A DNA stretch of 64,000 nucleotides from a virus. Below, in pieces: positions 3,124 to 64,000 of this stretch (position 1 is its first letter; every line of letters begins with the position of its first letter). Under the pieces are notes generated by a model that had not been told where the DNA came from, did no database searches, and saw nothing but the letters and a program-made list of their open reading frames with translations. The stretch lies in IMG/VR virus record IMGVR_UViG_3300043427_001796, one strand, 5' to 3'. Position numbers and translations under genes: made by a program.

Positions 3124-3276
3124 TTATGATTGTGATAAGTTTTGCTCAAGATATAATTTTAATTTGTCAACTAAATTTTGATACTCTGCCCAGACAAACT
3201 CAGATCCAGTCTCGTTTTGATAGTGCTTACAGGCAGTAATTAGTCTGTGAATGTCATTCTCTCGTAGCTGATACAT
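3124..3276 (-). CDS. Small hypothetical protein (50 aa), not in ORF track
   Basis: MYQLRENDIHRLITACKHYQNETGSEFVWAEYQNLVDKLKLYLEQNLSQS*. Confidence 0.6.
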   Translation of the reverse strand: MYQLRENDIHRLITACKHYQNETGSEFVWAEYQNLVDKLKLYLEQNLSQS

Positions 3277-4729: not shown

Positions 4730-4811
4730 GGGTAGGTGTCCGAGTGGTTAATGGAGGTGGACTGTAAATCCACTGGCTCTGCCTACGGGGGTTCAAATCC
4801 CTCCCTGCCCA
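4730..4811 (+). tRNA. tRNA-Tyr(GUA)
   Basis: GGGUAGG/CCUGCCC acceptor, GUGGA-CUGUAAA-UCCAC, long variable arm, GGUUCAAAUCC. Confidence 0.95.
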
Positions 4812-4840
4812 TTGACAATCCGACCAGTCTATGGTAAGAT
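4812..4840 (+). promoter_or_regulatory. sigma70 promoter (extended -10)
   Basis: TTGACA-N17-TAAGAT with TG. Confidence 0.7.
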
Positions 4841-4848
4841 TGTCTCAT

Positions 4849-4922
4849 GTCTCGGTAGCTCAGTTGGATAGAGCATCTGCCTTCTAAGCAGTTGGTCACA
4901 GGTTCAAGTCCTGTCCGAGACG
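4849..4922 (+). tRNA. tRNA-Arg(UCU)
   Basis: GUCUCGG/CCGAGAC, anticodon loop CUUCUAA. Confidence 0.95.
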
Positions 4923-4948
4923 CTTGGAGAAACTGACGGGTTTCTCCT

Positions 4949-5135
4949 GGGTGTGACAGAATAACCTATGTGGTCAAGCACTGGGTAATGTAGATTAGGA
5001 CAGGGGTGATACCCGCCATACGACTAGGAGACTAGAGGTATGAGAATCCACTATCAAGGAGTCCGAAAGTATTGGGAAAACACTTACTATCAGTGAGACC
5101 TTCCCGATTGTGAGTATGATAGAATCTCACCACCC
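4949..5135 (+). ncRNA. Multi-stem structured RNA, probably the manA RNA motif
   Basis: Closing stem GGGUG/CACCC; internal stems ACCUA/UGGGU, GGAC/GUCC, CUAG-GAGA-CUAG, AUUGGGAA/UUCCCGAU, GUGAG/CUCAC; manA RNAs are known next to tRNAs in cyanophages. Confidence 0.6.
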
Positions 5136-5139
5136 TCTA

Positions 5140-5211
5140 GGGCGATTAACTCAGCGGTAGAGTGCCTCCTTTACACGGAGATGGTCACTGGTTCAAATCC
5201 AGTATCGCCCA
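5140..5211 (+). tRNA. tRNA-Val(UAC)
   Basis: GGGCGAU/AUCGCCC, loop UUUACAC. Confidence 0.95.
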
Positions 5212-5291
5212 TAGTCCAATATATAATATGGATAAAGAACGCTATTTAAAAATTCGTAAAGAACTTGACGACATAAAAGGAATGCTTGAAA

Positions 5292-5543
5292 ATGTTAACT
5301 ATCAGATGCAAGAGCTGCGGGAAAGTATTAGAGGAGCACCCATCCCAACTACGCAGTTGCCAATGTCCGAACCTTACATCCATCCGTGGTGGCAACATCA
5401 GTGGACTGGACCTGTCCCTAGTAGAAATAATCTCGGGGGTAAAGTCTCATCATCAAAACTCAGTTCTAACAAGACAGGATCTGGAGTTTCAGGAGCAGAG
5501 ACGCAAGCGTAAGGTTCGTCGTCTGGACTTTGAAGAAAGATAA
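5292..5543 (+). CDS. Zn-ribbon-like conserved cyanophage protein
   Basis: CKSC...CQCPN motif, basic C-terminus RRKRKVRRLDFEER. Confidence 0.7.
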   Translation: MLTIRCKSCGKVLEEHPSQLRSCQCPNLTSIRGGNISGLDLSLVEIISGVKSHHQNSVLTRQDLEFQEQRRKRKVRRLDFEER

Positions 5544-5621
5544 AGATATAATAAAATTCCTTTAGAATGTCTTGATTTTCACACGCTTCTGTCATAAAAT
5601 ACTGACAGAAGCAAGCAAATT

Positions 5622-5825
5622 ATGATCAACCTCCACCAGCGTTTCAATCACTATCTTCATACAGATCGTAAACTTGATCTACAAGATATTAATGAACCTG
5701 TTATTGCTTATGGATGGACTGATAATGGTAAAGATCTTACGGGATATTACCTCTTGACAAAACACCATAAGTTGTTCTATAATCTCAAAGAACAATTCCT
5801 ATATAAAGAGTCTATCGGGATGTAG
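5622..5825 (+). CDS. Hypothetical protein
   Basis: 67-aa ATG ORF; stop codon lies inside tRNA-Pro. Confidence 0.6.
   Translation: MINLHQRFNHYLHTDRKLDLQDINEPVIAYGWTDNGKDLTGYYLLTKHHKLFYNLKEQFLYKESIGM
5754..5783 (+). promoter_or_regulatory. sigma70 promoter for tRNA-Pro/talC
   Basis: TTGACA-N18-TATAAT inside the upstream ORF. Confidence 0.65.
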
Positions 5826-5889
5826 CTCAGTTTGGTAGAGCACTCGCTTTGGGAGCGAGAAGTCGTAGGTTCAAATCCTATCATCCCGA
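5816..5889 (+). tRNA. tRNA-Pro(UGG)
   Basis: CGGGAUG/CAUCCCG, CUCGC-UUUGGGA-GCGAG. Confidence 0.95.
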
Positions 5890-5955
5890 CTCAACTAATT
5901 GTTGTTATTTTTTAATTATATGTCGTCATTTAATATTACAATTCAAAGTAACCCC

Positions 5956-6624
5956 ATGAAAATATTTCTTGATACAGGTGATGTTGATGCAATCTATAAA
6001 AGATATACTACCGGATTAATTGATGGAGTCACGACAAATCCAACTCTTATTTTAAAATCTGGCAGGACACAACAAGAAGTCATTCAAGAAATTGTCGATA
6101 GTTTTCCTGATTTTGAATCTATCTCTGCAGAAGTTGTTGCAGATGACTATGCTAGTATGATACGACAAGGGGTAGATTACTTTACTATCGCTCCAAATGT
6201 CACAATCAAACTTCCATGCACACCAGAAGGACTAAAGGCATGTGCTTATTTTGCAGACATGGAAAATACAGATGGTAAAAAGATAACTACTAATGTAACT
6301 CTTATCTTCTCTGTAGCACAAGCAATTCTAGCAGCAAAAGCAGGAGCAACTTATGTTTCTCCTTTTGTTGGTAGAGTCTATGATAATTCTTTTGATGGTG
6401 TTCAACTGATACAAAATATTTCTGATACATATAAATTACACGGCATCAATACCAAGGTTCTTGCTGCTTCTTTACGAGATGTGCATAGTGTTTCGCGTTG
6501 TTTTATGAGTGGTGCCGATGTTGTTACTATGCCCCCAGAGATTTTTGACAAAATGTATTGTCATGTTCTCACGGATAAGGGACTTGAAACTTTCAACAAA
6601 GATTACGAAGCACAAAACAAATGA
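5956..6624 (+). CDS. talC: Transaldolase (TalC/FSA family)
   Basis: MKIFLDT, GVTTNPTLI, VTIKLP (Schiff-base Lys), NVTLIFS, YVSPFVGR. Confidence 0.95.
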   Translation: MKIFLDTGDVDAIYKRYTTGLIDGVTTNPTLILKSGRTQQEVIQEIVDSFPDFESISAEVVADDYASMIRQGVDYFTIAPNVTIKLPCTPEGLKACAYFADMENTDGKKITTNVTLIFSVAQAILAAKAGATYVSPFVGRVYDNSFDGVQLIQNISDTYKLHGINTKVLAASLRDVHSVSRCFMSGADVVTMPPEIFDKMYCHVLTDKGLETFNKDYEAQNK

Positions 6625-6866
6625 GTCTAACAATCTATTCAAAACCAGGATGTTCGCATTGCCAGAAATTTATTTTCATCGCACAACATCAAGGTCTAGA
6701 TTATGTTGTCTATGAATTGGGAGAGCACTTTACAAAAGAAGAGTTTTATTCTGAGTTTGGTAAAGGAGCAACATTTCCACAGATCGTATTAGGGGACATT
6801 CCACTAGGCGGTTGCAAAGAATCAATTAAATATCTAAAAGAAAAAGAACTTTGTTGTATGATTTGA
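6621..6866 (+). CDS. Glutaredoxin
   Basis: YSKPGCSHC, TFPQI, LGGC. Confidence 0.88.
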   Translation: MSLTIYSKPGCSHCQKFIFIAQHQGLDYVVYELGEHFTKEEFYSEFGKGATFPQIVLGDIPLGGCKESIKYLKEKELCCMI

Positions 6867-6867
6867 T

Positions 6868-7239
6868 ATGTATAGCACACCAGTTAAGGGAACAAACAAA
6901 AACAAAACCACCCTCAACTGGTGGGAATATTGGATCGGTCATTGTTGGATGACTGGTTGGCAATCTATTCGTGGAGCATTTAGAATCTGGGCTGATCTTA
7001 TGGGATCAAACTATAAAGACTATGCTCTACTCAAAAATGACGATCCAGAACAAGAATGTCTTGAATGGTTTTGGGTATCTCTTGGCGAAGATGATACTTA
7101 TCCAAAGTATTTTCTTGAAGAGTTGCTTGAAATGGTAGATCGTATTGATCGTGGTGAAGAAAAACTCATTCCTATGGATGAAGACTTTATAAAAAGATTA
7201 ACAGATCTTGTAGATGATGTGGAGTTAGATGATGACTGA
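6868..7239 (+). CDS. Hypothetical protein (Trp-rich)
   Basis: 123-aa ORF, tightly packed with neighbours. Confidence 0.7.
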   Translation: MYSTPVKGTNKNKTTLNWWEYWIGHCWMTGWQSIRGAFRIWADLMGSNYKDYALLKNDDPEQECLEWFWVSLGEDDTYPKYFLEELLEMVDRIDRGEEKLIPMDEDFIKRLTDLVDDVELDDD

Positions 7240-7507
7240 TATTCATTTGTTTGTTCAAGAAGGTTGCCGTCCATGCATGTATGCTGAGACACAACTAAAG
7301 AAAGTTGAAGGTTGGGAAAATGTTATCACCATCACCAATGCTAAAGTTGGAAATCAATGGACGCAATTTGCCAATGATTGTGGTGTAGTTGCCACACCAA
7401 CTTTAGTTGCTTTAATTGATGGTGTCATTGTTGCCAAGGTTGAAGGATCTAATAACATGACATCTGATTTTTGGAGGGCTACGGTAGAGAAACATGGGAA
7501 TGTTTGA
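7229..7507 (+). CDS. Thioredoxin-like protein
   Basis: GCRPC, GVVATPTLV. Confidence 0.75.
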   Translation: MMTDIHLFVQEGCRPCMYAETQLKKVEGWENVITITNAKVGNQWTQFANDCGVVATPTLVALIDGVIVAKVEGSNNMTSDFWRATVEKHGNV

Positions 7508-7898
7508 TTATTTTCGCTCATCATATGATTTGGGTGAGCAATTTACAAATGTAGTGTGTCAAACCAAAGACATTGAAGATGGTATTGGTGGCACAATGAC
7601 TGACTATTGGTTAGATCCAAATGGAGTTCTATGGTATCCTGATTATCGGGGAACAAATACATTTGAGATTATTGAAGAGGACGATCCAAGATATGATCCC
7701 AAGATGAAGTTTTTAAACTTTGAATGGGTTCCTACCGGACAACATGGTAGATATGTTCCCTGTTTAATTACAAAATATGTTGAAGTACATGTGGCAAATT
7801 GGAAAGGATCATGGGAAACATGGCCACGATTAAAATTACATTTCAAACGAGGAATACTACAGGACTACGAGGATATCACACATGAACGAAGTAATTGA
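7494..7898 (+). CDS. Hypothetical protein
   Basis: MGMFDY...QTKD-type conserved phage ORF. Confidence 0.7.
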   Translation: MGMFDYFRSSYDLGEQFTNVVCQTKDIEDGIGGTMTDYWLDPNGVLWYPDYRGTNTFEIIEEDDPRYDPKMKFLNFEWVPTGQHGRYVPCLITKYVEVHVANWKGSWETWPRLKLHFKRGILQDYEDITHERSN

Positions 7899-8076
7899 AG
7901 TTACACAAGAAGAGTTTGAAGAAAACTTTGAAGAGTATATGGATAAGATAGAGAAGGACAAGCAGTACTTTATGATCAGAATGCCTGATGGTAGAGCAGT
8001 TGCTGCCGTTCCAGCTCTTGACATTGCCGACAAGGAGTGGTATGATATGATGACAGACCACGATGATGCTCCATGA
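7882..8076 (+). CDS. Small acidic protein, Phd/YefM-like N-terminal fold possible
   Basis: VTQEEFEENFEEYMDKIE...FMIRMPDGRAVAAVP pattern. Confidence 0.55.
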   Translation: MNEVIEVTQEEFEENFEEYMDKIEKDKQYFMIRMPDGRAVAAVPALDIADKEWYDMMTDHDDAP

Positions 8077-8297
8077 AAATCTTACTTGAAAGATTCCCCT
8101 ATCGTTATGTTGAATGTGGTACACTAGATAATGGTCATCCAGACTTTAGAATTCAGAAGATGAATTCTTACACGAATAGATATAAAGACATGTATCTATG
8201 TGATAATTCTCTTCAAATGTCAACTGCAATTGAAGATTTTGAATACACCAAATGGTTAGATCCTGATGGTGTTCCTGCTTACAGGAAATATACTTAA
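8073..8297 (+). CDS. Conserved cyanophage hypothetical protein
   Basis: LERFPYRYVECG...YLCDN...EDFEYTKWLDP. Confidence 0.7.
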   Translation: MKILLERFPYRYVECGTLDNGHPDFRIQKMNSYTNRYKDMYLCDNSLQMSTAIEDFEYTKWLDPDGVPAYRKYT

Positions 8298-8313
8298 GTC
8301 TTCGGACTTTTCT

Positions 8314-8384
8314 GCGGGTGTGGTGTAGCGGTAACATGCGAGCCTTCCAAGCTCTTGTCACGGGTTCGATCCCCGTCACCCGCT
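8314..8384 (+). tRNA. tRNA-Gly(UCC)
   Basis: GCGGGUG/CACCCGC, loop CUUCCAA. Confidence 0.95.
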
Positions 8385-46935: not shown

Positions 46936-47574
46936 GTGGGAAAATCCATATCGGAAGTAATCACTAAGATACAAAAGGGTATGTCGATGACTACCATGTA
47001 TGAAGTGACTTTTGAATTTCCGACGCAAGCATCAGAATTGAAAGGACAATTGCAGGCAGCAGTTGGAGATAGAACTTCTGGTTCTTTAACTGGTGATGGT
47101 TTAATTACTTTGATGTGCAATGAGGCACAATTACCAAATATTTCTTCACTTACTGGACAGACAAATGGAATTGTTATGGGAGAAGGTCAAGTAAATTATG
47201 CTTACGGAAGATTATATTCTGATATTGCTTTAGGTTGGCAATGTGATCATAATATGACACCACTCAGGTTTCTACAGACATGGCATGATTATACATTTAG
47301 TGACTCTAGAGTTGGTGGTGGATCTTTAGTGGAGACTAGATCAACTCCATCTAAAGTTAGATATCCAGAAAAATATCAAGGAACAATTATAATAACTAAA
47401 CTATCTCAAGGAAAGGGAACAAAAGATTTGAAACCAATGAAATACACTTTAATTGATGCATTTCCTTTTAGTATTGATGCCACTCCTTTGTCTTACGGGT
47501 CATCACAGATAGTAAATGTCTCCGCATCTTTTTACTACTCTAGATATTTTGTTGAGAACACTGATATTATTTGA
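46936..47574 (+). CDS. Tail-tube-family protein (gp54/gp19-like)
   Basis: LMCNEAQLP, FLQTW, YTLIDAFPFSI...LSYG...VSASFYY. Confidence 0.75.
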   Translation: MGKSISEVITKIQKGMSMTTMYEVTFEFPTQASELKGQLQAAVGDRTSGSLTGDGLITLMCNEAQLPNISSLTGQTNGIVMGEGQVNYAYGRLYSDIALGWQCDHNMTPLRFLQTWHDYTFSDSRVGGGSLVETRSTPSKVRYPEKYQGTIIITKLSQGKGTKDLKPMKYTLIDAFPFSIDATPLSYGSSQIVNVSASFYYSRYFVENTDII

Positions 47575-47678
47575 AATTTCAAAATTGACTTTTAATTTAT
47601 AAAAAAGTCGAAAAATTTTTTTCGACAATTTTTTGCCCAAAAAGTTGAGATATATAAATATAGGATTTTAATAATATT

Positions 47679-48392
47679 ATGTCATTACCTAGACCATCTA
47701 CGCCAACATACGAGTTGACTTTACCATCAACAGGAAAAGTTATCAAATTTAGACCATTTTTAGTCAAAGAAGAAAAAGTATTACTTCTTGCAGAGCAGTC
47801 TGAGGACGAAAAAGAGATTAAAAATGCTATCAGAGATGTCATCAAAAATTGTATGGTTTCTCGCGTTAAGATAGAAGATTTTACATATTTTGATTTGGAG
47901 TATGTGTTTTTACAATTAAGAGCTAGATCGGCAGAGGAACATCTGGATTTAGTAATTACATGTAAAGATGACAATAAAACGCAAGTAAATCATCGCATAA
48001 ATTTGCTTAATGTTGAAGTTAAGAAGAATTCCAAATCGAGCAATAAAATTATGCTGGAGGAAGATTTTGGTCTAATTTTGAAATATCCAGGAATGGATGA
48101 ATTTGTTAGATTTGCTATGATGGGAAATCAATTGCCAGATGAAGAAGTAATTGAATATGTTGCAACTAAAGTTGATCAAATTTTCCATGGTGAGGAAGTA
48201 TGGGATGCCGCAGATTTGAAAAAGCAAGAAATTATTGATTGGTTAGATAATTTAACTCAAAAGCAGTTTGTTAAAATTGGAGAATTTTTTGAAAATCTTC
48301 CAGTATTGAAGCATGAATTCAAACTCAAAAATCCAACAACTGGAGTAGAAAGTGAGTATGTATTGGAGGGATTACAGAATTTTTTCGCCTAG
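47679..48392 (+). CDS. 26: Baseplate hub assembly protein gp26
   Basis: LPRPSTPTYELTLPSTG...FRPFLVKEEKVLL, DLEYVFLQLRARS, LEGLQNFF; TATAAATA at 47653. Confidence 0.9.
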   Translation: MSLPRPSTPTYELTLPSTGKVIKFRPFLVKEEKVLLLAEQSEDEKEIKNAIRDVIKNCMVSRVKIEDFTYFDLEYVFLQLRARSAEEHLDLVITCKDDNKTQVNHRINLLNVEVKKNSKSSNKIMLEEDFGLILKYPGMDEFVRFAMMGNQLPDEEVIEYVATKVDQIFHGEEVWDAADLKKQEIIDWLDNLTQKQFVKIGEFFENLPVLKHEFKLKNPTTGVESEYVLEGLQNFFA

Positions 48393-48394
48393 TA

Positions 48395-48577
48395 ATGTCC
48401 TATAATAATCTGGAAAATTATTTTAGGACAAACTTCATGTTGATGGAGGAACATAAATACTCTTTGACAGAAATTGAAAATATGATGCCTTTTGAACGGC
48501 AAGTTTATGTCCTTCTTGTGAATGAATATATTAAGAAAAAAGAAGAAGAACTTAAGCAAAGGCAACAAGGTAAATGA
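48395..48577 (+). CDS. 51: Baseplate hub assembly catalyst gp51-like (possibly the -1 frame extension of gp26)
   Basis: NYFRTNFMLMEEHKYSLTEIENMMPFERQVYV. Confidence 0.85.
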   Translation: MSYNNLENYFRTNFMLMEEHKYSLTEIENMMPFERQVYVLLVNEYIKKKEEELKQRQQGK

Positions 48578-51500
48578 TTCCGGAAAAGGCGATAAAAAAG
48601 TTTTCAAAACCTTCTCATAGAGAGATTGCTGTTGGAATTTTAGTATCGTATGGACTATTTCCACAAACTAATGATGGAATAGATCAAGCAAAAAAATTAA
48701 TTGCGGGAGCATCCAAATGGATATCTCCTTCCAATTTGCCTGAGTATTATGATGGAATTGATAGTGATCTCATTACAGGAAGAGAAACTCCAGGTATTCT
48801 GGCAATCAGAGAAACATTAAAGAATTTTTACTTTGGAACCCCAACAACTACAATTGATGAAACTCCAATAGAGGAAATTCCAGTTGAAGTAGAAATTATT
48901 GAAGTTGAAAAATTACCTGATCCTGTTCCTCAACCTGATCCAACGCCAGAACCAGTAAAGATTGAAATTGAGGTTCCTGTTGAGAAGCAGGCAAATGCTC
49001 CGCGAAGAATTAAACTTCCAAGAGCAAAAAATCGTTTTGTTCGCAAAAAAGTAAAACCACTTTCTCAAAGGATGGCAGAATCCTTTGATAAGAATTTACT
49101 AGATCCTCTTATAGAGGAAATCAAAAATCCAAAACCTCTTCCTACATCTAAGACTAAAAAAGGGGGAACAAAAAAGCAAGTATCTAAGAAAATTTTCCCA
49201 GGAAAACAATTTGCCGGAAAATTTTCTTCATCTTCTGGTAGCTTAGGTCCAAGAGTAATTTCCAAAATTGGAGCATCTTTTGGACTCGCTGCTGCGTCCA
49301 GAAAAGCATTCAAAGAGTCTGGTGGCGATCCTCGCTCTCTGAGACGCGGGTATTTCCTCTCCAAGGCACTTGGAGCAGAGTTCGGTGGGGATTTCCGTCG
49401 TAGGACCAGAGGCACCTTCTCAAGGGATCCAGACGCCACTCAGGATCCTGGCATGAGCAAGGAAGAAAGATTTGCTCAGGTGGTCAAACGTGATCTTGTC
49501 AATCGTCCTCAGATGATGAAGCAAGGTGAAATTCTTGATGTTGATTCATACACCAATAAAACTGCTTTACAATCAATCACAGATCTTGCCAAGAAGACAG
49601 CAGACAAGATTCTTGGTCTGGAACCAGGATTTGTTAGAATTGAAAAGAGTCAAAAAGAGACATCTAAGGCATTTGTTAAGATCACTCAGAGTTTGAGCGA
49701 GGTCAAAAATACATTTGTAAAGACAGCAGATAACTTTAAAGAATTTGTTGATAATAAAGAAGAAGTTATTAAGATCAAAACTAAAATACGAGAGGTTTTG
49801 AGGAAAGAGCAAGACGAAAATAAGAGATCTGCCACAGAAGCACAGGGAGAATTATTTCAGGATACTGCTGGCACTACTGATGTAGAAGAAACAGATCAAG
49901 GTCTTAATGAAGAAGAAGAACAACAGCAAGAAGATGGTGGCGGTGGATTTGATTTACCTGATTTCAGAAGACCTAGAATTAGAGGAAGACTTAGATTAGC
50001 AAGAAGAAGATTTAGTAGATTTGGACGTGGATTTGGTAGGAGATTAGGTGGTCTGGGAAGAGGATTGGGTAGAATTGGGAGTGGAATTGGTAGAGGATTA
50101 GGTGCTGCCGGTAAGTTTGTTGGTGGTCGTGTCTTAGGTCCAGTATTGGGAGATATGTTATTTCCTGAAGGTGCTGGAGTATCTGAGCCACAAATGGGAC
50201 CAGATGGTAAATTTAGAACTCCTGATGGCAAATTAGTTCCGGAACCAGGAGCATCTAAACCAAAATCAGTAGCAAGTAGAGTAGGAAATCTTGCTGAGTC
50301 TGGTAAAGGATTAATTGGTAAAGGAAAGGGAGCAATCGGTAAAGTTGCTGGCAAAGTTGGATCTAAACTAGGTGGTGGACTAGCAAAGTCTATTGGTAAG
50401 AAGATTCCTGGTGTTGGTTTAGTTATTGGTGGACTGGCAGCGGCAGATAGATTCAAATCTGGTGATATTCTAGGAGGAATTGGAGAGATTGGGTCTGGAA
50501 TTGCCTCTCTCGTTCCTGGTGTTGGAACAGCAATATCTCTCGGTATTGATGCTCTATTGATGGGTAAAGATGTTGCTGCTGAGGCATCCAAACCAGAAAC
50601 TAAATTGTCAGGTGGTGGTATTGTTGCTGGTGAGGCAGGAAATGAGGCAGTTATACCACTAACATCTTCTATTGGAAAGAAAGTTGTAGGAGGATTGGAA
50701 AATAGTGGTGGTGGATCTATCCTCAGTGCCATTGGTCCTTTATTATCTGCTACTGCCGGAATAGTTAGAAATCCTTTATACGGATCGATACTAGGACCAG
50801 TTGTAAATCCAATTATCCAACCGATGCTGGCACAATATAAAGTTCCAGTTTATTCTGGCGATTTTGGATCATTTAAAATATCTAAACTTCAAGCAGCAAC
50901 TACTCAAGCAAAAGGAAAGACAAAATCTATTGAACAAGCATCAAAAAATCCTCTCACTTCTGGTATGGGGTGGTTGGGAACTATGTTTAGTGGCATTGGC
51001 GGTATGGTTTCTGGAGCATTTGGCGGCATAAAGAATTTCTTTGGTGGATTATTTGGAGGTGGTCGCCAGAAACGTGGTAAAGGAAGTAATGTTAGTGGCA
51101 TTCCTTTAGGGGATGGTGAGACAGCTACTGGTTCAACAATTATGAATGGACTTGTAAAAAGAGGATTTACGAAAGAGGAAGCAGCAGCAATTGTAGGAAA
51201 TTTATGGGCAGAGTCTTCATTTAGAACCGGAGCTGTAAATCCAAAATCAGGAGCATTTGGTTTAATGCAATGGGCATATGGTAGGAAAGATACGCTCATG
51301 AGAAGGGCAGCAGAATCTGGCAAAAGCGCAACTGATTTGGAGTTCCAATTGGACCATATTGCTTGGGAACTTCGTGGTGGGGATAGATATGAAACTTCGC
51401 AATTCAAAAAAGCAATGGCATATGGATCTGATGTTCCCTCAAAAACTAGGGGATTTGCTAATGAAGTTGAAAGAGCAAGTGATAGTGAATTATCGTCTTC

Positions 51501-51942
51501 AATGGCAAAAAGAATTGGAGCAGCTGAATCTGTATATAAAAAAGGATCATCATCTATTTCTGGAAATAACAGAAGATCTTCTCCATCTTCATCTAATAAT
51601 CAAGATAAAAAAACAGAAGAAACACAAAAAATATCTGCTAAATCTACTGGTGCGTCCGCTGCTCCAAAAGTTGCTGCCGCCCCAATGGCAAAATCGGATG
51701 ATTCAAATTTAATGGCATCTGCAGCACAATTGCCGACTAAATCTCTAGCACCATCTGTGATGCAAGATCCTGATCCAGATAATGAAGGTTATGGAAATAA
51801 TCTTGCTATCGTTGCACCATCAGCAGGTAAGGTAAGTCCCCAAATGCCTAGACAAACTGGCGGTGGAGGTTTTGTTGTAATGGATCAAGATCCAGGTTTA
51901 ACGATAGGTGGTATCATTAATGCTAGGTTGTATAATGCCTAA
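48574..51942 (+). CDS. Tape-measure/hub-like protein with phage tail lysozyme domain
   Basis: Coiled coil and Gly-rich helices; AAAIVGNLWAESS...GAFGLMQW...QLDHIAWEL...ERA lysozyme motif. Confidence 0.75.
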   Translation: MIPEKAIKKFSKPSHREIAVGILVSYGLFPQTNDGIDQAKKLIAGASKWISPSNLPEYYDGIDSDLITGRETPGILAIRETLKNFYFGTPTTTIDETPIEEIPVEVEIIEVEKLPDPVPQPDPTPEPVKIEIEVPVEKQANAPRRIKLPRAKNRFVRKKVKPLSQRMAESFDKNLLDPLIEEIKNPKPLPTSKTKKGGTKKQVSKKIFPGKQFAGKFSSSSGSLGPRVISKIGASFGLAAASRKAFKESGGDPRSLRRGYFLSKALGAEFGGDFRRRTRGTFSRDPDATQDPGMSKEERFAQVVKRDLVNRPQMMKQGEILDVDSYTNKTALQSITDLAKKTADKILGLEPGFVRIEKSQKETSKAFVKITQSLSEVKNTFVKTADNFKEFVDNKEEVIKIKTKIREVLRKEQDENKRSATEAQGELFQDTAGTTDVEETDQGLNEEEEQQQEDGGGGFDLPDFRRPRIRGRLRLARRRFSRFGRGFGRRLGGLGRGLGRIGSGIGRGLGAAGKFVGGRVLGPVLGDMLFPEGAGVSEPQMGPDGKFRTPDGKLVPEPGASKPKSVASRVGNLAESGKGLIGKGKGAIGKVAGKVGSKLGGGLAKSIGKKIPGVGLVIGGLAAADRFKSGDILGGIGEIGSGIASLVPGVGTAISLGIDALLMGKDVAAEASKPETKLSGGGIVAGEAGNEAVIPLTSSIGKKVVGGLENSGGGSILSAIGPLLSATAGIVRNPLYGSILGPVVNPIIQPMLAQYKVPVYSGDFGSFKISKLQAATTQAKGKTKSIEQASKNPLTSGMGWLGTMFSGIGGMVSGAFGGIKNFFGGLFGGGRQKRGKGSNVSGIPLGDGETATGSTIMNGLVKRGFTKEEAAAIVGNLWAESSFRTGAVNPKSGAFGLMQWAYGRKDTLMRRAAESGKSATDLEFQLDHIAWELRGGDRYETSQFKKAMAYGSDVPSKTRGFANEVERASDSELSSSMAKRIGAAESVYKKGSSSISGNNRRSSPSSSNNQDKKTEETQKISAKSTGASAAPKVAAAPMAKSDDSNLMASAAQLPTKSLAPSVMQDPDPDNEGYGNNLAIVAPSAGKVSPQMPRQTGGGGFVVMDQDPGLTIGGIINARLYNA

Positions 51943-51968
51943 TAAATAATCTAGGAGGATATTATTAA

Positions 51969-54350
51969 ATGGCTTCTGGAACTAGTTCTGTTGCACCAGT
52001 TGGACAAAATCCAGGTGGTCCAGGTTTATTTAAGTTAATTGGCGAGAAAGTCAAGAAGGCCAAAGAGCAAGCGGTAGAAGCTCGTCAAGAAGCAGATCAA
52101 CGTATCAAAAATCTTGAAGAAATTCCAGATGATGAAAAAACTCAAGATGATATCATTGAGTTAGATTCACTCAAGCAAAAGAGAAGTGAGAACGCATATT
52201 TTTTCAAGAAAGCACTGAAGTTTCAGGCAACTGACAAAATTAGAACAACAATGGGTAAGTTCCAGAGAGATCCGGAACTACAGAATGATCCAGCAGCAAC
52301 GGAAAAAGAAAGATTTTATGCTAAGTCTGGAATGTTTAGACCTGGCGAGATGCCAGATACATCTGATAGAGAAGGCGGTAAAGACGTAGTGAGTTATGTT
52401 GGAAAGGGATTCCAACTTATCATGGATGCGATTGATAAAATTAAATCAAGAGTTAACAAAACAGCATCCAGTAGCGAGCAAACAGCATCTACTGCTTCAT
52501 CAACAGAATCCAAAACTGATGGTGTAAAAAATTCTACAGAAAATTTAAATAAGACAACCGAAACAATATCAAATGTTTCAAAAGAGGAAGTTAATGTTCA
52601 ACAAATGGAGTTGGACTTTGAACAAAAGGCAGAGCAAGAGAGAAATAGAGCAGAGTCTGAAGCAAGATCAGAAGCACAATCCGATACCGCTGGTGTTACG
52701 GATGTTAAAGAAACAGATCAGGGAATAAAACCAAAGGGCAAAGGATTATTTTCTTCCATACTAAACATAGGAGGTCAATTACTTAGTGGTAGAGGTGGTG
52801 GAAGATTGGGTGGTCTTGGGGGCAGAGGTGGAGCATTAGGAAGATTGGGTAGAATGAGAGCAGGAAGGATGATGAATCCTGCCAGAAGAAATAGACAATA
52901 CACTGCTCCAATTGGTCCACAACCAATGAATTCGCCTACACCATGGGCAGCAGAGGGTGGTGGATTTACTCCAAGAATGCCATCCAGTAATATAAACCTG
53001 TCCGATGGTGGAATTATTGCCCCAATTAAAGCACAAAAACAGAAGAAATTAGCAGATGGTGGAATTACTGGTCTAGTTTCTAAATTCTTACCACCACCAT
53101 TGGGTCCAATGCTCAATATGATGATTAACCCAGGTGGAGCAATGGGTGGCATTGGTAATGCAGTTAAAGGTGCTGCCGGTGGAGCATTCCAAATGCTTAC
53201 CAATCCAACAAAACTCATTGGAGATGGATTGAGAGCAGTGTTACCAATGAATCGTAATGTTGGTAAGCAAGTTATGGGAAATAAAAAGGAAACTGAAAAT
53301 ATTTCTCAATTATTTAAATTACCGAATATAATTGGTGGCGGTATTATGTTTTCAAGTATTGCTCAAATTGCTAATGCGGTCCCATTCTTAGGTGCAATTA
53401 TCAATGCTGCCAAACCAATTATAAAACCATTAGTTGAAGCATTCGGTTTACCTGCATCTGTTCTGGGAATTATTTTTGGTGGAGGATCTGCTAGTGCCGC
53501 TACAATGCCGGAACCAGTAGATTTCGGTGCTCAAGATGATGGTGGAGATGGTGGTGGAGGTGATGGTGGCGGTGGAGGAGGAGGATTAGGAGCGGTTGGT
53601 CCATCAATGACATCTAGTGGTGGATCAACTGCTTCGCAATATGTAACATCCGGATTTGGACCAAGAAATACTGGAATCGCTGGTGCGTCCACAAATCATG
53701 GTGGTATTGACATTGCTGGTGGACCATGGCAAGCAGGAACAGCAATTTCTGTTATTAAACCGGGAGTTGTGGAGGAAACTGGTGATCTTGGTAGAAGTGG
53801 ATGGGGAAGATATGTAGTTGTTAAACATGATGATGGAACTTTTAGTTTATATGGTCACTTAAGTCAGATCAATGTGAAAAAAGGAGATAAGATAGAAAAT
53901 AAATCTGGAGAAGCTAAAGTGATAGGAAAAGTTGGAAGTACTGGAGTTTCAAATGGTCCGCATTTGCATTTTGAATTAGGAAAAGGTTGGAATGGAACTA
54001 TCACAGGAAAAGTTGATCCTAGAGGATATGTTGATTCTTATATTAGAGGTGGAGGAGATGTGAAGGTTAAGCAGACTGATGCACCACAAGTAGCAGCAAA
54101 ACCGACTGCTAGTCCAACTGGTGTTGCTGCTGCCTCATCCAATGCTGCTCCAACTCCTGCATCCAAACCTAGATCAGGATCTGGTAGTGGAGGAAAACCT
54201 TCTTCTAATGTTGCTGTTCTTCCCAATAATACATTAGCAGGTAAAGCAGTAAATCAAGTAGTTAATTCGGCAATTGATTCCGTGACACAATTTCCTGTAT
54301 CTCCTGGAGCAGCATTTACCAATCTTTGGCCATCTCCTCTTAAAAATTAA
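51969..54350 (+). CDS. Tape-measure/hub-like protein with M23 peptidase domain
   Basis: TSGFGPR, HGGIDI, YGHL, GSTGVSNGPHLHFE. Confidence 0.8.
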   Translation: MASGTSSVAPVGQNPGGPGLFKLIGEKVKKAKEQAVEARQEADQRIKNLEEIPDDEKTQDDIIELDSLKQKRSENAYFFKKALKFQATDKIRTTMGKFQRDPELQNDPAATEKERFYAKSGMFRPGEMPDTSDREGGKDVVSYVGKGFQLIMDAIDKIKSRVNKTASSSEQTASTASSTESKTDGVKNSTENLNKTTETISNVSKEEVNVQQMELDFEQKAEQERNRAESEARSEAQSDTAGVTDVKETDQGIKPKGKGLFSSILNIGGQLLSGRGGGRLGGLGGRGGALGRLGRMRAGRMMNPARRNRQYTAPIGPQPMNSPTPWAAEGGGFTPRMPSSNINLSDGGIIAPIKAQKQKKLADGGITGLVSKFLPPPLGPMLNMMINPGGAMGGIGNAVKGAAGGAFQMLTNPTKLIGDGLRAVLPMNRNVGKQVMGNKKETENISQLFKLPNIIGGGIMFSSIAQIANAVPFLGAIINAAKPIIKPLVEAFGLPASVLGIIFGGGSASAATMPEPVDFGAQDDGGDGGGGDGGGGGGGLGAVGPSMTSSGGSTASQYVTSGFGPRNTGIAGASTNHGGIDIAGGPWQAGTAISVIKPGVVEETGDLGRSGWGRYVVVKHDDGTFSLYGHLSQINVKKGDKIENKSGEAKVIGKVGSTGVSNGPHLHFELGKGWNGTITGKVDPRGYVDSYIRGGGDVKVKQTDAPQVAAKPTASPTGVAAASSNAAPTPASKPRSGSGSGGKPSSNVAVLPNNTLAGKAVNQVVNSAIDSVTQFPVSPGAAFTNLWPSPLKN

Positions 54351-61655: not shown

Positions 61656-61728
61656 GCTGGTTTAGCTATCTGGTGAAAGCACCCGACTCATAATCGGATA
61701 TAGGTGGGTTCAATCCCCTCAACCAGCA
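61656..61728 (+). tRNA. tRNA with CAU anticodon (elongator Met or lysidine Ile2)
   Basis: GCUGGUU/AACCAGC, loop CUCAUAA. Confidence 0.85.
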
Positions 61729-61814
61729 TTTGGACTCCAGCAAGGTGCTTGCTAGGATATAAACAACTGACGCCTCCCTCTGCGGAAAGAGTAACCATCA
61801 GGTCAGTGTCCAAA
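61729..61814 (+). ncRNA. Candidate three-way-junction RNA between tRNAs
   Basis: UUUGGAC/GUCCAAA closing stem; AGCAAG/CUUGCU and ACUGAC/GUCAGU arms. Confidence 0.45.
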
Positions 61815-61820
61815 TTATAT

Positions 61821-61902
61821 GTCGCTGTGGCGGAATTGGTAGACGCGCTGGGTTTAGGTTCCAGTGAATTAATTCGTGGAGGTTCAAGTCCTCTCAGCGA
61901 CA
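61821..61902 (+). tRNA. tRNA-Leu(UAG)
   Basis: GUCGCUG/CAGCGAC, loop UUUAGGU, long variable arm. Confidence 0.93.
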
Positions 61903-61905
61903 TTT

Positions 61906-61997
61906 GGAGGATTGGCAGAGTTAGGTTTAATGCAGGAGATTGCTAATCTCCCGATGTCTTCTATGGGCATCCGTTGGTTCAAATCCAACATCCTCCG
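61906..61997 (+). tRNA. tRNA-Ser(GCU)
   Basis: GGAGGAU/AUCCUCC, GGAGA-UUGCUAA-UCUCC, long variable arm. Confidence 0.93.
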
Positions 61998-62003
61998 CCT
62001 CAT

Positions 62004-62078
62004 TCTGAGGTAGCCAAGTGGTAAGGCAGCGGGTTTTGGTCCCGCCATTCGTGGGTCCGAATCCTACCCTCAGAACCA
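62004..62078 (+). tRNA. tRNA-Gln(UUG), encoded CCA
   Basis: UCUGAGG/CCUCAGA, GCGGG-UUUUGGU-CCCGC; T-loop UCCGAAU. Confidence 0.85.
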
Positions 62079-62079
62079 A

Positions 62080-62151
62080 GGGTCTGTAACTCAACGGTAG
62101 AGTAACGGGCTTTTAACCTGGAAGTTGTGGGTTCAAATCCCACCAGACCCA
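62080..62151 (+). tRNA. tRNA-Lys(UUU)
   Basis: GGGUCUG/CAGACCC, loop CUUUUAA. Confidence 0.93.
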
Positions 62152-62153
62152 TT

Positions 62154-62225
62154 GGAACCGTAGCTCAGTGGTAGAGCACTCGGCTGATAACCGAGCGGTC
62201 ACAAGTTCAAATCTTGTCGGTTCCA
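62154..62225 (+). tRNA. tRNA-Ile(GAU)
   Basis: GGAACCG/CGGUUCC, CUCGG-CUGAUAA-CCGAG. Confidence 0.95.
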
Positions 62226-62226
62226 C

Positions 62227-62255
62227 TTGACAACCATCCATCCTTATGGTATGAT
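62227..62255 (+). promoter_or_regulatory. sigma70 promoter inside tRNA cluster 2
   Basis: TTGACA-N17-TATGAT with TG. Confidence 0.75.
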
Positions 62256-62270
62256 TGTCTTATCCCGAAA

Positions 62271-62345
62271 GGGACTGTCGCCTATAGGTTAAGGCCCACT
62301 GCTTATAACGGTGTGAACGGAGTTCAAGTCTCCGCAGTCCTACCA
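62271..62345 (+). tRNA. tRNA-Ile(UAU), encoded CCA
   Basis: GGGACUG/CAGUCCU, CACUG-CUUAUAA-CGGUG. Confidence 0.85.
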
Positions 62346-62346
62346 A

Positions 62347-62430
62347 GCGAGTATGGTGGAATCGGTAGACACACCAGACTTAAAATCTGTTGGGGGCAAC
62401 CCCGTGGGAGTTCAAGTCTCCCTGCTCGCA
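62347..62430 (+). tRNA. tRNA-Leu(UAA), intronless
   Basis: GCGAGUA/UGCUCGC, loop CUUAAAA, variable arm GGGG-GCAA-CCCC. Confidence 0.93.
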
Positions 62431-62464
62431 TCCACACTAAATAACCTTGTGTGGAAATTCAAAC

Positions 62465-62734
62465 ATGAAATACCATCTATCACAATCTTATGTCTTCTAC
62501 ATGGGGGAAGTGGTGAGAATGTATTTCATACAGGGTATTCCTTATACATTTGATGAACTTCCTCAAATTATACAGGATCACCCATCAGTTCAAACACAAG
62601 CATTGTCCAATCGTGACTATGATGATGAAGACATGTATTTGGCATCTAATTATTTGGTGACAGAAGCAGCACATCCACTTATGTTTGAACTGGAAGTAGA
62701 CGATCCAGAACTTTTACCTAAAGATGATTCATGA
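62465..62734 (+). CDS. Conserved cyanophage hypothetical protein
   Basis: VRMYFIQGIPYTFDELP...HPLMFELEV; CTAAATA upstream. Confidence 0.7.
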   Translation: MKYHLSQSYVFYMGEVVRMYFIQGIPYTFDELPQIIQDHPSVQTQALSNRDYDDEDMYLASNYLVTEAAHPLMFELEVDDPELLPKDDS

Positions 62735-63224
62735 ATTTCGTAATCGCTTAATTGGCACATTTGAGAACAAACGTCAAGCATTTCGTAATCCTTCTCGGTT
62801 TGCGTATGTTAGAATTGTTCACAAGGATGTGGATGGATCTCTGATCTATGGCGAGCAAGCATACCACTATATGCTAAACTCTCCATATCGGAAGTTTGTC
62901 CTAGAACCAGTTGAAGATAACGGAAGACTAGTAATTAAAAATTACTCAGTGATTGATCATAATCTTCCCATCACGAAAGATAATCTCTCCTATCGTGATG
63001 GTTGTGACATCTATTTTAATCTAATTGATGATGTCTTTGTTGGATCCTCAGAAGGATGTAATTGCGTCGTGATGAGAGGAGGTAAGGAAACTTACTTCAC
63101 AACAAAAGCACAGATTGGACCAAACTATTATCATGTTATTGATCGTGGTTTTGATCCAGTCAGCAAGAAACAAATCTGGGGAACTGAATATGGTCCCTTT
63201 GAATTTTCTAAACTCTCTATATAA
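62724..63224 (+). CDS. cpeT: CpcT/CpeT-family phycobiliprotein lyase
   Basis: GTFENKRQAF-NP-RFA, YGEQAY...PYR, DRGFDP...IWG...GPFEF. Confidence 0.85.
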   Translation: MIHEFRNRLIGTFENKRQAFRNPSRFAYVRIVHKDVDGSLIYGEQAYHYMLNSPYRKFVLEPVEDNGRLVIKNYSVIDHNLPITKDNLSYRDGCDIYFNLIDDVFVGSSEGCNCVVMRGGKETYFTTKAQIGPNYYHVIDRGFDPVSKKQIWGTEYGPFEFSKLSI

Positions 63225-63244
63225 TTTGGAAGACGGTAAAAGTT

Positions 63245-63715
63245 ATGGACTACCCAGACCCGTATAAACCAGTTCTAGTATTGAATAGTTCTTACGAACC
63301 AATCAACATCACAAATTGGAAACGAGCAATCGTTCTACTTCTCAAAAATAAAGCACATATGCTCTCTAAGAGAGTTATCAGACTAGTTAATTACATTGCT
63401 CTCCCTCTTAAAAAGATGAGAGTAACACAACCAACTCGTAAGATGATTTACCAACGAGATGACAACAAATGTCAGTATTGTGGATCAACCAGACATCTTA
63501 CAATTGATCATGTAATTCCTAGATCTAAAGGTGGCGGGGATACGTGGGAAAACATGGTGGTTGCCTGTTCGTCATGTAATACGAAAAAAGGTGATAAATA
63601 TCTTGAACAAACTGGTATGAAATTGGCGAAAAATCCTAGAGCACCCATCAACACCATGTTTTTATCTTTAGAAAAATCTAAGGATCCAGAGTGGACAGAA
63701 TACGTCTTCATGTGA
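63245..63715 (+). CDS. HNH endonuclease (McrA/HNH_5-like)
   Basis: VLVLNSSYEP, RDDNKCQYCG, TIDHVIPRSKGG, ACSSCNTKKG. Confidence 0.9.
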   Translation: MDYPDPYKPVLVLNSSYEPINITNWKRAIVLLLKNKAHMLSKRVIRLVNYIALPLKKMRVTQPTRKMIYQRDDNKCQYCGSTRHLTIDHVIPRSKGGGDTWENMVVACSSCNTKKGDKYLEQTGMKLAKNPRAPINTMFLSLEKSKDPEWTEYVFM

Positions 63716-63768
63716 TATAATATGAGAGGGAATACAAAAGGTCCGAATAGCAGGACGCCCTCTTTCTT

Positions 63769-63840
63769 GCCTAATTAGCTCAGTGGTAGAGCACTCGCCT
63801 TGTAAGCGAGCGGTCGTCAGTTCAAGTCTGACATTAGGCT
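63769..63840 (+). tRNA. tRNA-Thr(UGU)
   Basis: GCCUAAU/AUUAGGC, CUCGC-CUUGUAA-GCGAG. Confidence 0.95.
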
Positions 63841-64000
63841 CTTGGTAGTCCTTAGCGATTAACCATGATCTCCAGATGCCATTTGGTAGTTTCCTTAGTC
63901 TGGGGTGATATAAAGGGTCAAACTACCTGTAGGAACCAAAACCTCTCCTTGGTCTTAGTATTCTGTGACCAAGTGAAGTAAAGAGGGGGGCTTAAGGTGA

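Follow-up and report, generated by a model that had tools for sequence, protein, structure and literature searches.

A predicted −1 frameshift joining gp26 and gp51 in a T4-like cyanophage, and its conservation among relatives

Long-tailed phages have a conserved frameshift in their tail chaperone genes (Levin 1993; Xu 2004; reviewed in PMC5009743), and a 2016 review describes this G-T frameshifting as conserved among long-tailed phages 'except T4' (PMC5009743). In λ, some ribosomes move to the −1 frame a few codons ahead of the stop, which yields the short gpG and the C-terminally extended gpGT, and in P2 the gpE/gpE+E′ pair arises by a −1 shift at T_TTT_TTG, directly 5′ of the tape measure gene T. 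A Shine-Dalgarno (SD) element on the 5′ side and a stem-loop on the 3′ side are the stimulators described for dnaX and many IS elements (PMC5009743), and U_UU.U_UU.Y is among the most efficient −1 motifs in Escherichia coli (PMC4066793).

[quoted passage not shown] As summarised in the same two papers, Vladimirov et al. identify T4 gp26 and gp51, which are chaperones of hub assembly, as the tail assembly chaperones of T4-like phages. Judging by these two citing papers, the arrangement described below is already published and is not new; the statement of the first-pass annotation that no such description exists for T4-type 26/51 therefore fails. What the window (the whole 64-kb stretch of viral DNA analysed here) adds is a divergent cyanophage member, codon-level conservation statistics, clade-specific hairpins, a bias towards an SD-like motif and two natural split variants.

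The gp26–gp51 junction and its resemblance to known chaperone genes

The features of the locus are collected in Table 1. The nearest isolates are T4-like cyanophages (Kyanoviridae), with gp26 identity of at most 54%, and no close DNA relative of the window was found. The gp26 protein matches PF12322 T4_baseplate over profile positions 1–219 (E 2.4e-62; 210.9 bits, the curated cut-off being 24.5) and also phrog_150, the gp26 family profile, positions 240–281 of which are matched by the gp51 ORF. The 3′ end of the gene reads AAT TTT TTC GCC TAG, and a −1 slip would change the reading to TTT TTT CGC CTA GTA ATG, in frame with the 60-aa gp51 ORF; the −1 frame is open from 48356, the preceding TGA lying at 48353–55. 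The predicted fusion thus has 236 + 63 = 299 aa, with the junction ...LQNFF|RLVMSY.... On reading the sequence, no SD-like motif is found within 12 nt 5′ of the ATG at 48395, which is possibly a re-initiation codon besides encoding a Met of the fusion.

The first-pass annotation had placed the heptamer, the GGAGG and the ATG, and had read the −1 frame into gp51, exactly; its junction and its fusion length are likewise correct as predictions. The gene order that it had given (tail-tube-like, gp26, gp51, tape-measure-like), with gp26 and gp51 between tube and tape measure, is confirmed by PF23849, PF12322, phrog_634 and phrog_9570. A tblastn search found no second gp26-like gene within the window. 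The two tape-measure-like proteins encoded at 48574–54350 would be likely clients of a chaperone pair.

Table 1. Coordinates of the features at the gp26–gp51 locus and of related gp51-like parts
Feature	Position	Strand	Description
Tail-tube-like gene	46936..47574	+	212 aa, directly 5′ of gp26; PF23849 Phage_TTP_2 E 6.7e-39; phrog_45 tail tube
Late-promoter-like TATAAATA	47653..47660	+	18 nt before gp26 ATG; read from sequence
gp26 ORF (short form)	47679..48392	+	237 aa, zero frame; stop TAG 48390–48392
GGAGG, SD-like candidate 5′ stimulator	48365..48369	+	Perfect; 10 nt before heptamer, 25 nt before ATG
Slippery heptamer T_TTT_TTC	48380..48386	+	First T is a third codon position
−1 frame extension	48386..48577	+	RLV + 60-aa gp51; stop TGA 48575–48577
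gp51 ORF	48395..48577	+	60 aa, −1 frame relative to gp26; phrog_634 'hub assembly catalyst' E 3e-23
ATG, gp51 start as annotated elsewhere	48395..48397	+	2 nt past gp26 stop; Met within the predicted fusion
RNA hairpin	48396..48430	+	9 nt past heptamer; stems 48396–48402/48424–48430 and 48404–48409/48417–48422
Tape-measure-like gene	48574..51942	+	1122 aa, tail lysozyme domain; phrog_9570 tape measure E 5.5e-23; PF18013 E 1.4e-26
Second tape-measure-like gene	51969..54350	+	793 aa, M23 peptidase PF01551 E 1.9e-20; phrog_5453 common with the 1122-aa protein
Predicted junction peptide of gp26–51 fusion			NPTTGVESEYVLEGLQNFFR then LVMSYNNLENYFR
Unannotated gp51-like parts	L001:2187-2369, L002:2190-2369, L088:2205-2373		Records of ACG-2014e, S-CAM4, Aeromonas AS-yj

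Upstream, a terminator-like hairpin (GTCGAAAAA/TTTTTCGAC, then a T run) is found at 47607–47626, between the tube-like gene and gp26, and is followed by TATAAATA, which matches the T4 late-promoter consensus; with these two elements upstream, gp26 seems to be the first gene of its own late transcription unit. ARAGORN identified 14 tRNA genes in two clusters (4730–8384 and 61656–63841). As tRNA-Phe is absent from them, the window itself offers no phage-encoded tRNA-Phe to read the slip site.

An AlphaFold2 model of gp26 (49 sequences, mean pLDDT 87) was compared with 48,161 chains by exhaustive structural alignment (VIA-align). The top matches, to gp26 residues 1–95, were 3fgx (Z 8.1), 3klu (YqbN, Z 7.4) and 2ob9 (HK97 tail assembly chaperone, Z 7.3), and the next stood at Z 4.9; YqbN, and probably 3fgx, are presumably XkdN-type chaperones. 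Since values of Z 7.3–8.1 are also compatible with a common arrangement, these matches are counted as suggestive only: the modelled N-terminal domain may have the tail assembly chaperone fold, resembling that of the HK97 protein. Foldseek returned no match of the gp26 model to the PDB at E ≤ 0.001, and no chaperone family was found either with a profile of the 49 gp26 sequences against PDB sequences or with the N-terminal domain and the tail against Pfam at E ≤ 10. A predicted complex of the tube-like protein and the gp51 tail scored 0.00, which is uninformative in either direction.

The locus shares with λ gpG/gpGT a −1 site a few codons before the stop, in a gene lying between tube-like and tape-measure-like genes, and the predicted production of a short and a C-terminally extended form. 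It differs in that gp26 resembles no G-type family in sequence, has roughly twice the length and an extra C-terminal domain, and carries the heptamer T_TTT_TTC, whereas that of λ is G_GGA_AAG. The resemblance to P2, a contractile-tailed phage, extends to a near-identical heptamer located just before the tape measure gene; however, gpE has only 91 aa and is unrelated in sequence, and its zero-frame stop lies 6 codons past the site as against 1 in the window.

Conservation of the heptamer and of the −1 frame

Two sets of relatives were compared: a first set of 84 loci with gp26 43–64% identical (80 IMG/VR loci plus S-PM2, ACG-2014e and S-CAM4) and a second of 84 distinct, more diverse loci obtained from a profile search; pooled, they gave 150 distinct junctions, in which the relatives' gp26 is 25–64% identical. 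The loci are not phylogenetically independent. T_TTT_TTN is present in the same register at 167 of the 168 related loci, which is far beyond chance. In the first set, 83/84 loci carry T_TTT_TTC in register, 82/84 in the same placement (heptamer, one codon, stop), and a gp51 homologue lies in the −1 frame in all 83 that were scored. All 84 loci of the second set have T_TTT_TTN (C in 48, T in 35, A in one), and here the zero-frame stop is placed 7, 10, 13, 16 or 31 nt after the first base of the heptamer. As the distance to the stop differs between loci, the heptamer and not the stop is the conserved element.

The conservation extends to synonymous positions. Heptamer positions 1–6 are T in 150/150 junctions, whereas third codon positions further upstream have their most frequent base in 50% on average; position 7 is C in 77%, otherwise T, with a single A. 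The codon 5′ of the heptamer in the first set is AAT, TCT, AGT, GCT, GAT or GGT, so that five amino acids are encoded and always with a final T. The Phe pair at the heptamer is always TTT-TTC in the cyanophage set, despite TTT making up 76% of the other gp26 Phe codons, and other FF pairs in gp26 of the first set are mostly TTC-TTT.

Conservation of the −1 peptide begins at the junction (FFR[ILV]...NF.LMQHHKYSLTEIENM.PWER), and no stop codon interrupts the −1 frame from the heptamer to the gp51 part at any locus scored. ATG is absent from the first 14 −1 codons in 70 of the 150 junctions, and 43 lack ATG, GTG and TTG alike; at the position of the window's Met, ATG is found in 56/150 and a Leu codon in most of the others. 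More distant T4-like phages also possess the heptamer with a −1 tail, namely Sinorhizobium phage phiM7 and Pseudomonas phage pf16 (both T_TTT_TTT) and Stenotrophomonas phage Mendera and Aeromonas phage AS-yj (both T_TTT_TTC); searches started from single distant proteins returned near-identical contigs only. In the public records of ACG-2014e, S-CAM4 and AS-yj the gp51-like part is unannotated because it has no start codon, a gap that a frameshift explains.

The first-pass annotation had proposed a −1 frameshift joining gp26 and gp51, to be examined among relatives through the constancy of the −1 register, the synonymy of the Phe codons, the openness of the −1 frame before the gp51 Met, the variability of that Met and the presence of the upstream GGAGG. 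All of these comparisons support the proposal: the register is −1 in all relatives scored, the Phe codons are not freely synonymous, the frame is open throughout, many relatives have Leu in place of the Met, and GAGG is enriched as described below. Its further suggestion that gp51 may not be an independent gene agrees with most relatives and does not extend to two of them, each with its own gp51 ATG and no heptamer. One is the closest relative of the window (L004, IMGVR_UViG_3300035135_002253, 3190–3240; gp26 64% identity), in which the junction AAT TTT ACC GGT GGG TGA TGG has substitutions that destroy the heptamer and an SD-like GGTGGG that precedes a stop-overlapping ATG. This appears to be a natural split version of gp26/gp51, a second long-form gene elsewhere being possible as the contig is 19.8 kb. 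The other is Vibrio phage YC (NC_048709, Ackermannviridae; L089:2180–2430), which reads GCT TTC ATG TAA TG at the junction and has a separately started 68-aa gp51-like gene whose ATG overlaps the stop; its complete genome has one PF12322 gene only. The arrangement in these two relatives indicates that the gp51 tail can also come as a separate small protein, and, since both work without the heptamer, that covalent fusion is not indispensable everywhere.

Candidate stimulators

The SD-like motif upstream of the heptamer is encoded by a conserved Glu-Gly. Four codons before the heptamer, Glu is encoded by GAG at 62 loci and by GAA at 14, compared with 30% GAG elsewhere in gp26; GAGG is present in 62 of 83 relatives, and Glu is absent from this position in seven loci. 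The spacing between the SD-like element and the heptamer of dnaX is 10 nt. Taking together the GAG bias and the seven loci without Glu, GAGG(G) is favoured at dnaX-like spacing and is not universal.

The hairpin downstream of the heptamer has a minimum free energy of −12 kcal/mol in the window (z −3.0; none of 200 shuffles was as stable). Within the window's clade 88.5% of cells pair in the hairpin, with one compensatory pair, among six sequences only. A hairpin in another group, clade C, is 92.7% paired and includes one pair that is seen as UA, GC and AU, connecting the synonymous position of an Ala codon with the second position of a codon for Ala, Glu or Val. More generally, the 45 nt 3′ of the heptamer fold with a mean of −10.5 kcal/mol, compared with −5.0 kcal/mol in control windows of the same genes, and 78% of 77 loci fall in the lowest 10% of ranks; about seven loci fold weakly. 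RNAalifold on 73 junctions found no pairs shared by all clades; most clades have a hairpin, in differing registers, and as the hairpins are clade-specific the clades were analysed separately. The combination of an upstream SD-like element, a heptamer and a 3′ stem-loop is that of E. coli dnaX (PMC5009743), which differs in its heptamer (A_AAA_AAG) and its biology, and from which the present locus also differs in that its stimulators vary between clades.

One gene or two, and the origin of the long form

In T4, genes 26 and 51 are on opposite strands. T4 gp26 (208 aa) consists of the PF12322 domain alone, while T4 gp51 (249 aa) has a PF12322 domain (residues 1–201, E 4e-52) followed by a tail that matches phrog_634 (E 1e-23). 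The −1 translation of the window from the heptamer aligns with T4 gp51 residues 200–244, starting at F-K-L-L (E 3e-5), so that three residues upstream of the window's ATG are also aligned. The predicted 299-aa fusion and T4 gp51 are colinear, and this extends to the YSL..I..M.P.ER tail. T4 and the window have in common the PF12322 family and a short and a long form, of which the long one is predicted in the window. The difference lies in how the forms are encoded, as T4 has two paralogous genes and no slippery site, its gene 26 ending with the non-slippery TTC TTT for the FF of EFFELL, whereas the window has one gene and a predicted −1 shift. Complete genomes follow the same division, with one PF12322 gene each in ACG-2014e, S-PM2, phiM7 and AS-yj and two in T4. 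As read from these sequences, the pattern is complementary: a genome has either a single gene that carries a slip site or a pair of genes that lack it.

The C-terminal positions of phrog_150 were considered as in-frame fused cyanophage genes, and this was rejected as they derive from T4-type gp51 proteins. Separately, paired Cys motifs (such as C..CG and C.KCG) are seen in T4 gp26, AS-yj, Mendera and YC (columns ∼110–140 and 250–262 of our alignment A3), and in these distant gp26-family proteins they look like a four-Cys zinc ribbon. Most of these motifs are lost from cyanophage gp26, including that of the window (residues ∼95 and 218–222), where NPTTG replaces C.KCG.

It is highly probable that gene 26 carries a programmed −1 ribosomal frameshift; gp26 and the gp26–51 fusion would be the short and long forms of a chaperone. 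The comparison shows the signals in the sequence and how they are conserved, the colinearity of the fusion with T4 gp51, and the contrast between genomes with one gene and with two. The slippage itself, its rate, the role of both stimulators and the chaperone function are inferred. Most ribosomes would read AAU UUU UUC GCC UAG and release the 237-aa gp26, and a fraction would slip back by one base on U_UUU_UUC, with tRNA-Phe in the P and A sites, to continue with CGC CUA GUA AUG and produce the 299-aa long form. Pairing of the GGAGG with 16S rRNA (10 nt on the 5′ side) and the hairpin (9 nt on the 3′ side) would probably help the slip. The two forms would correspond to gp26 and gp51 of T4, where separate paralogous genes encode them, and, by analogy with λ G/GT and P2 E/E+E′, may act together on the tape-measure-like proteins in hub/tail assembly.

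Several alternatives can be weighed against the proposed frameshift. If there were none, a free 60-aa protein, started by termination-reinitiation at the AUG at 48395, might be the only form of gp51, with the U run and the GGAGG serving the coupling. An ATG at this position in over a third of the junctions (56/150), the split arrangement with a stop-overlapping ATG in L004 and Vibrio phage YC, where the heptamer is absent, and the ability of SD sequences close to the end of a gene to hold 30S subunits back for a restart (PMC5009743) are consistent with such a mechanism. However, it is difficult to reconcile with the 43 junctions that have no start codon at all and the 70 that have no ATG, in which the peptide is nevertheless conserved from the junction, or with the alignment of F-R-L-V, upstream of the ATG, with F-K-L-L of T4 gp51; it also leaves a register-specific heptamer and an invariant third-position T without a role, and the GGAGG is 25 nt away from the ATG. 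We therefore regard reinitiation as the only route to gp51 as improbable. Another view is that the conservation is a by-product of protein constraints, namely the FF motif and a neighbouring small gene, with no recoding function. FF is indeed conserved even in T4 gp26 (EFFELL), where a frameshift is impossible, but T4 encodes it as TTC TTT, invariance of the synonymous and adjacent wobble positions is confined to phages with a −1 tail, and in many relatives the −1 part lacks a start codon. This explanation is contradicted already by the codon-level data and is hardly credible.

The same fusion could also arise without ribosomal slippage if the RNA polymerase added one U in the T run and the transcript were translated normally, as a single inserted base yields the same product. 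T runs of seven or longer at 35 of the 84 second-set loci are in line with this, as may be the title of Vladimirov et al. (2022) with its 'mechanism other than translational frameshifting', and a contribution may exist in the T7–T9 lineages. However, the run is T6 only and is closed by a fixed C, both in the window and at each of the 83 first-set (cyanophage) loci that have the heptamer, even though TTT is the preferred Phe codon and selection on run length would favour it; moreover, transcriptional slippage is described in bacteria for runs of ∼9 (PMC5009743). The run is also always in the X_XXY_YYZ register, and the hairpin on its 3′ side and the SD-like motif on its 5′ side belong to the ribosomal type of stimulator. 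A T6 run closed by a fixed C, set against the runs of ∼9 described, makes transcriptional slippage very unlikely as the source of the long form.

A further reading includes the −1 frameshift and adds to it. As the ATG is kept 2 nt past the stop, some free gp51 may be made in the window, and it is conceivable, if rather doubtful, that there are three products, with gp26, the fusion made by frameshifting and a free 60-aa gp51 made by re-initiation, so that the C-terminal module would act both in cis and in trans. If this were true, the lineages would form a series from frameshift only (no start codon) through mixed (the window) and split (L004 and Vibrio phage YC) to duplicated (T4), and the ratio of the products would be adjusted by the SD-like motif and by hairpins that differ between clades.

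With the programmed −1 frameshift as the preferred explanation, the locus has a direct bearing on annotation, as public cyanophage records call gp51 a separate 'hub assembly catalyst' or omit it, where the long product would be a fusion of ∼299 aa, as predicted here. The natural variants without a start codon, with a kept AUG, split or duplicated provide material on the ratio and the linkage of the chaperone forms. For the family as a whole, gp26/gp51 would remove the T4 exception: most T4-like lineages would frameshift, and T4 would have replaced the frameshift by gene duplication.
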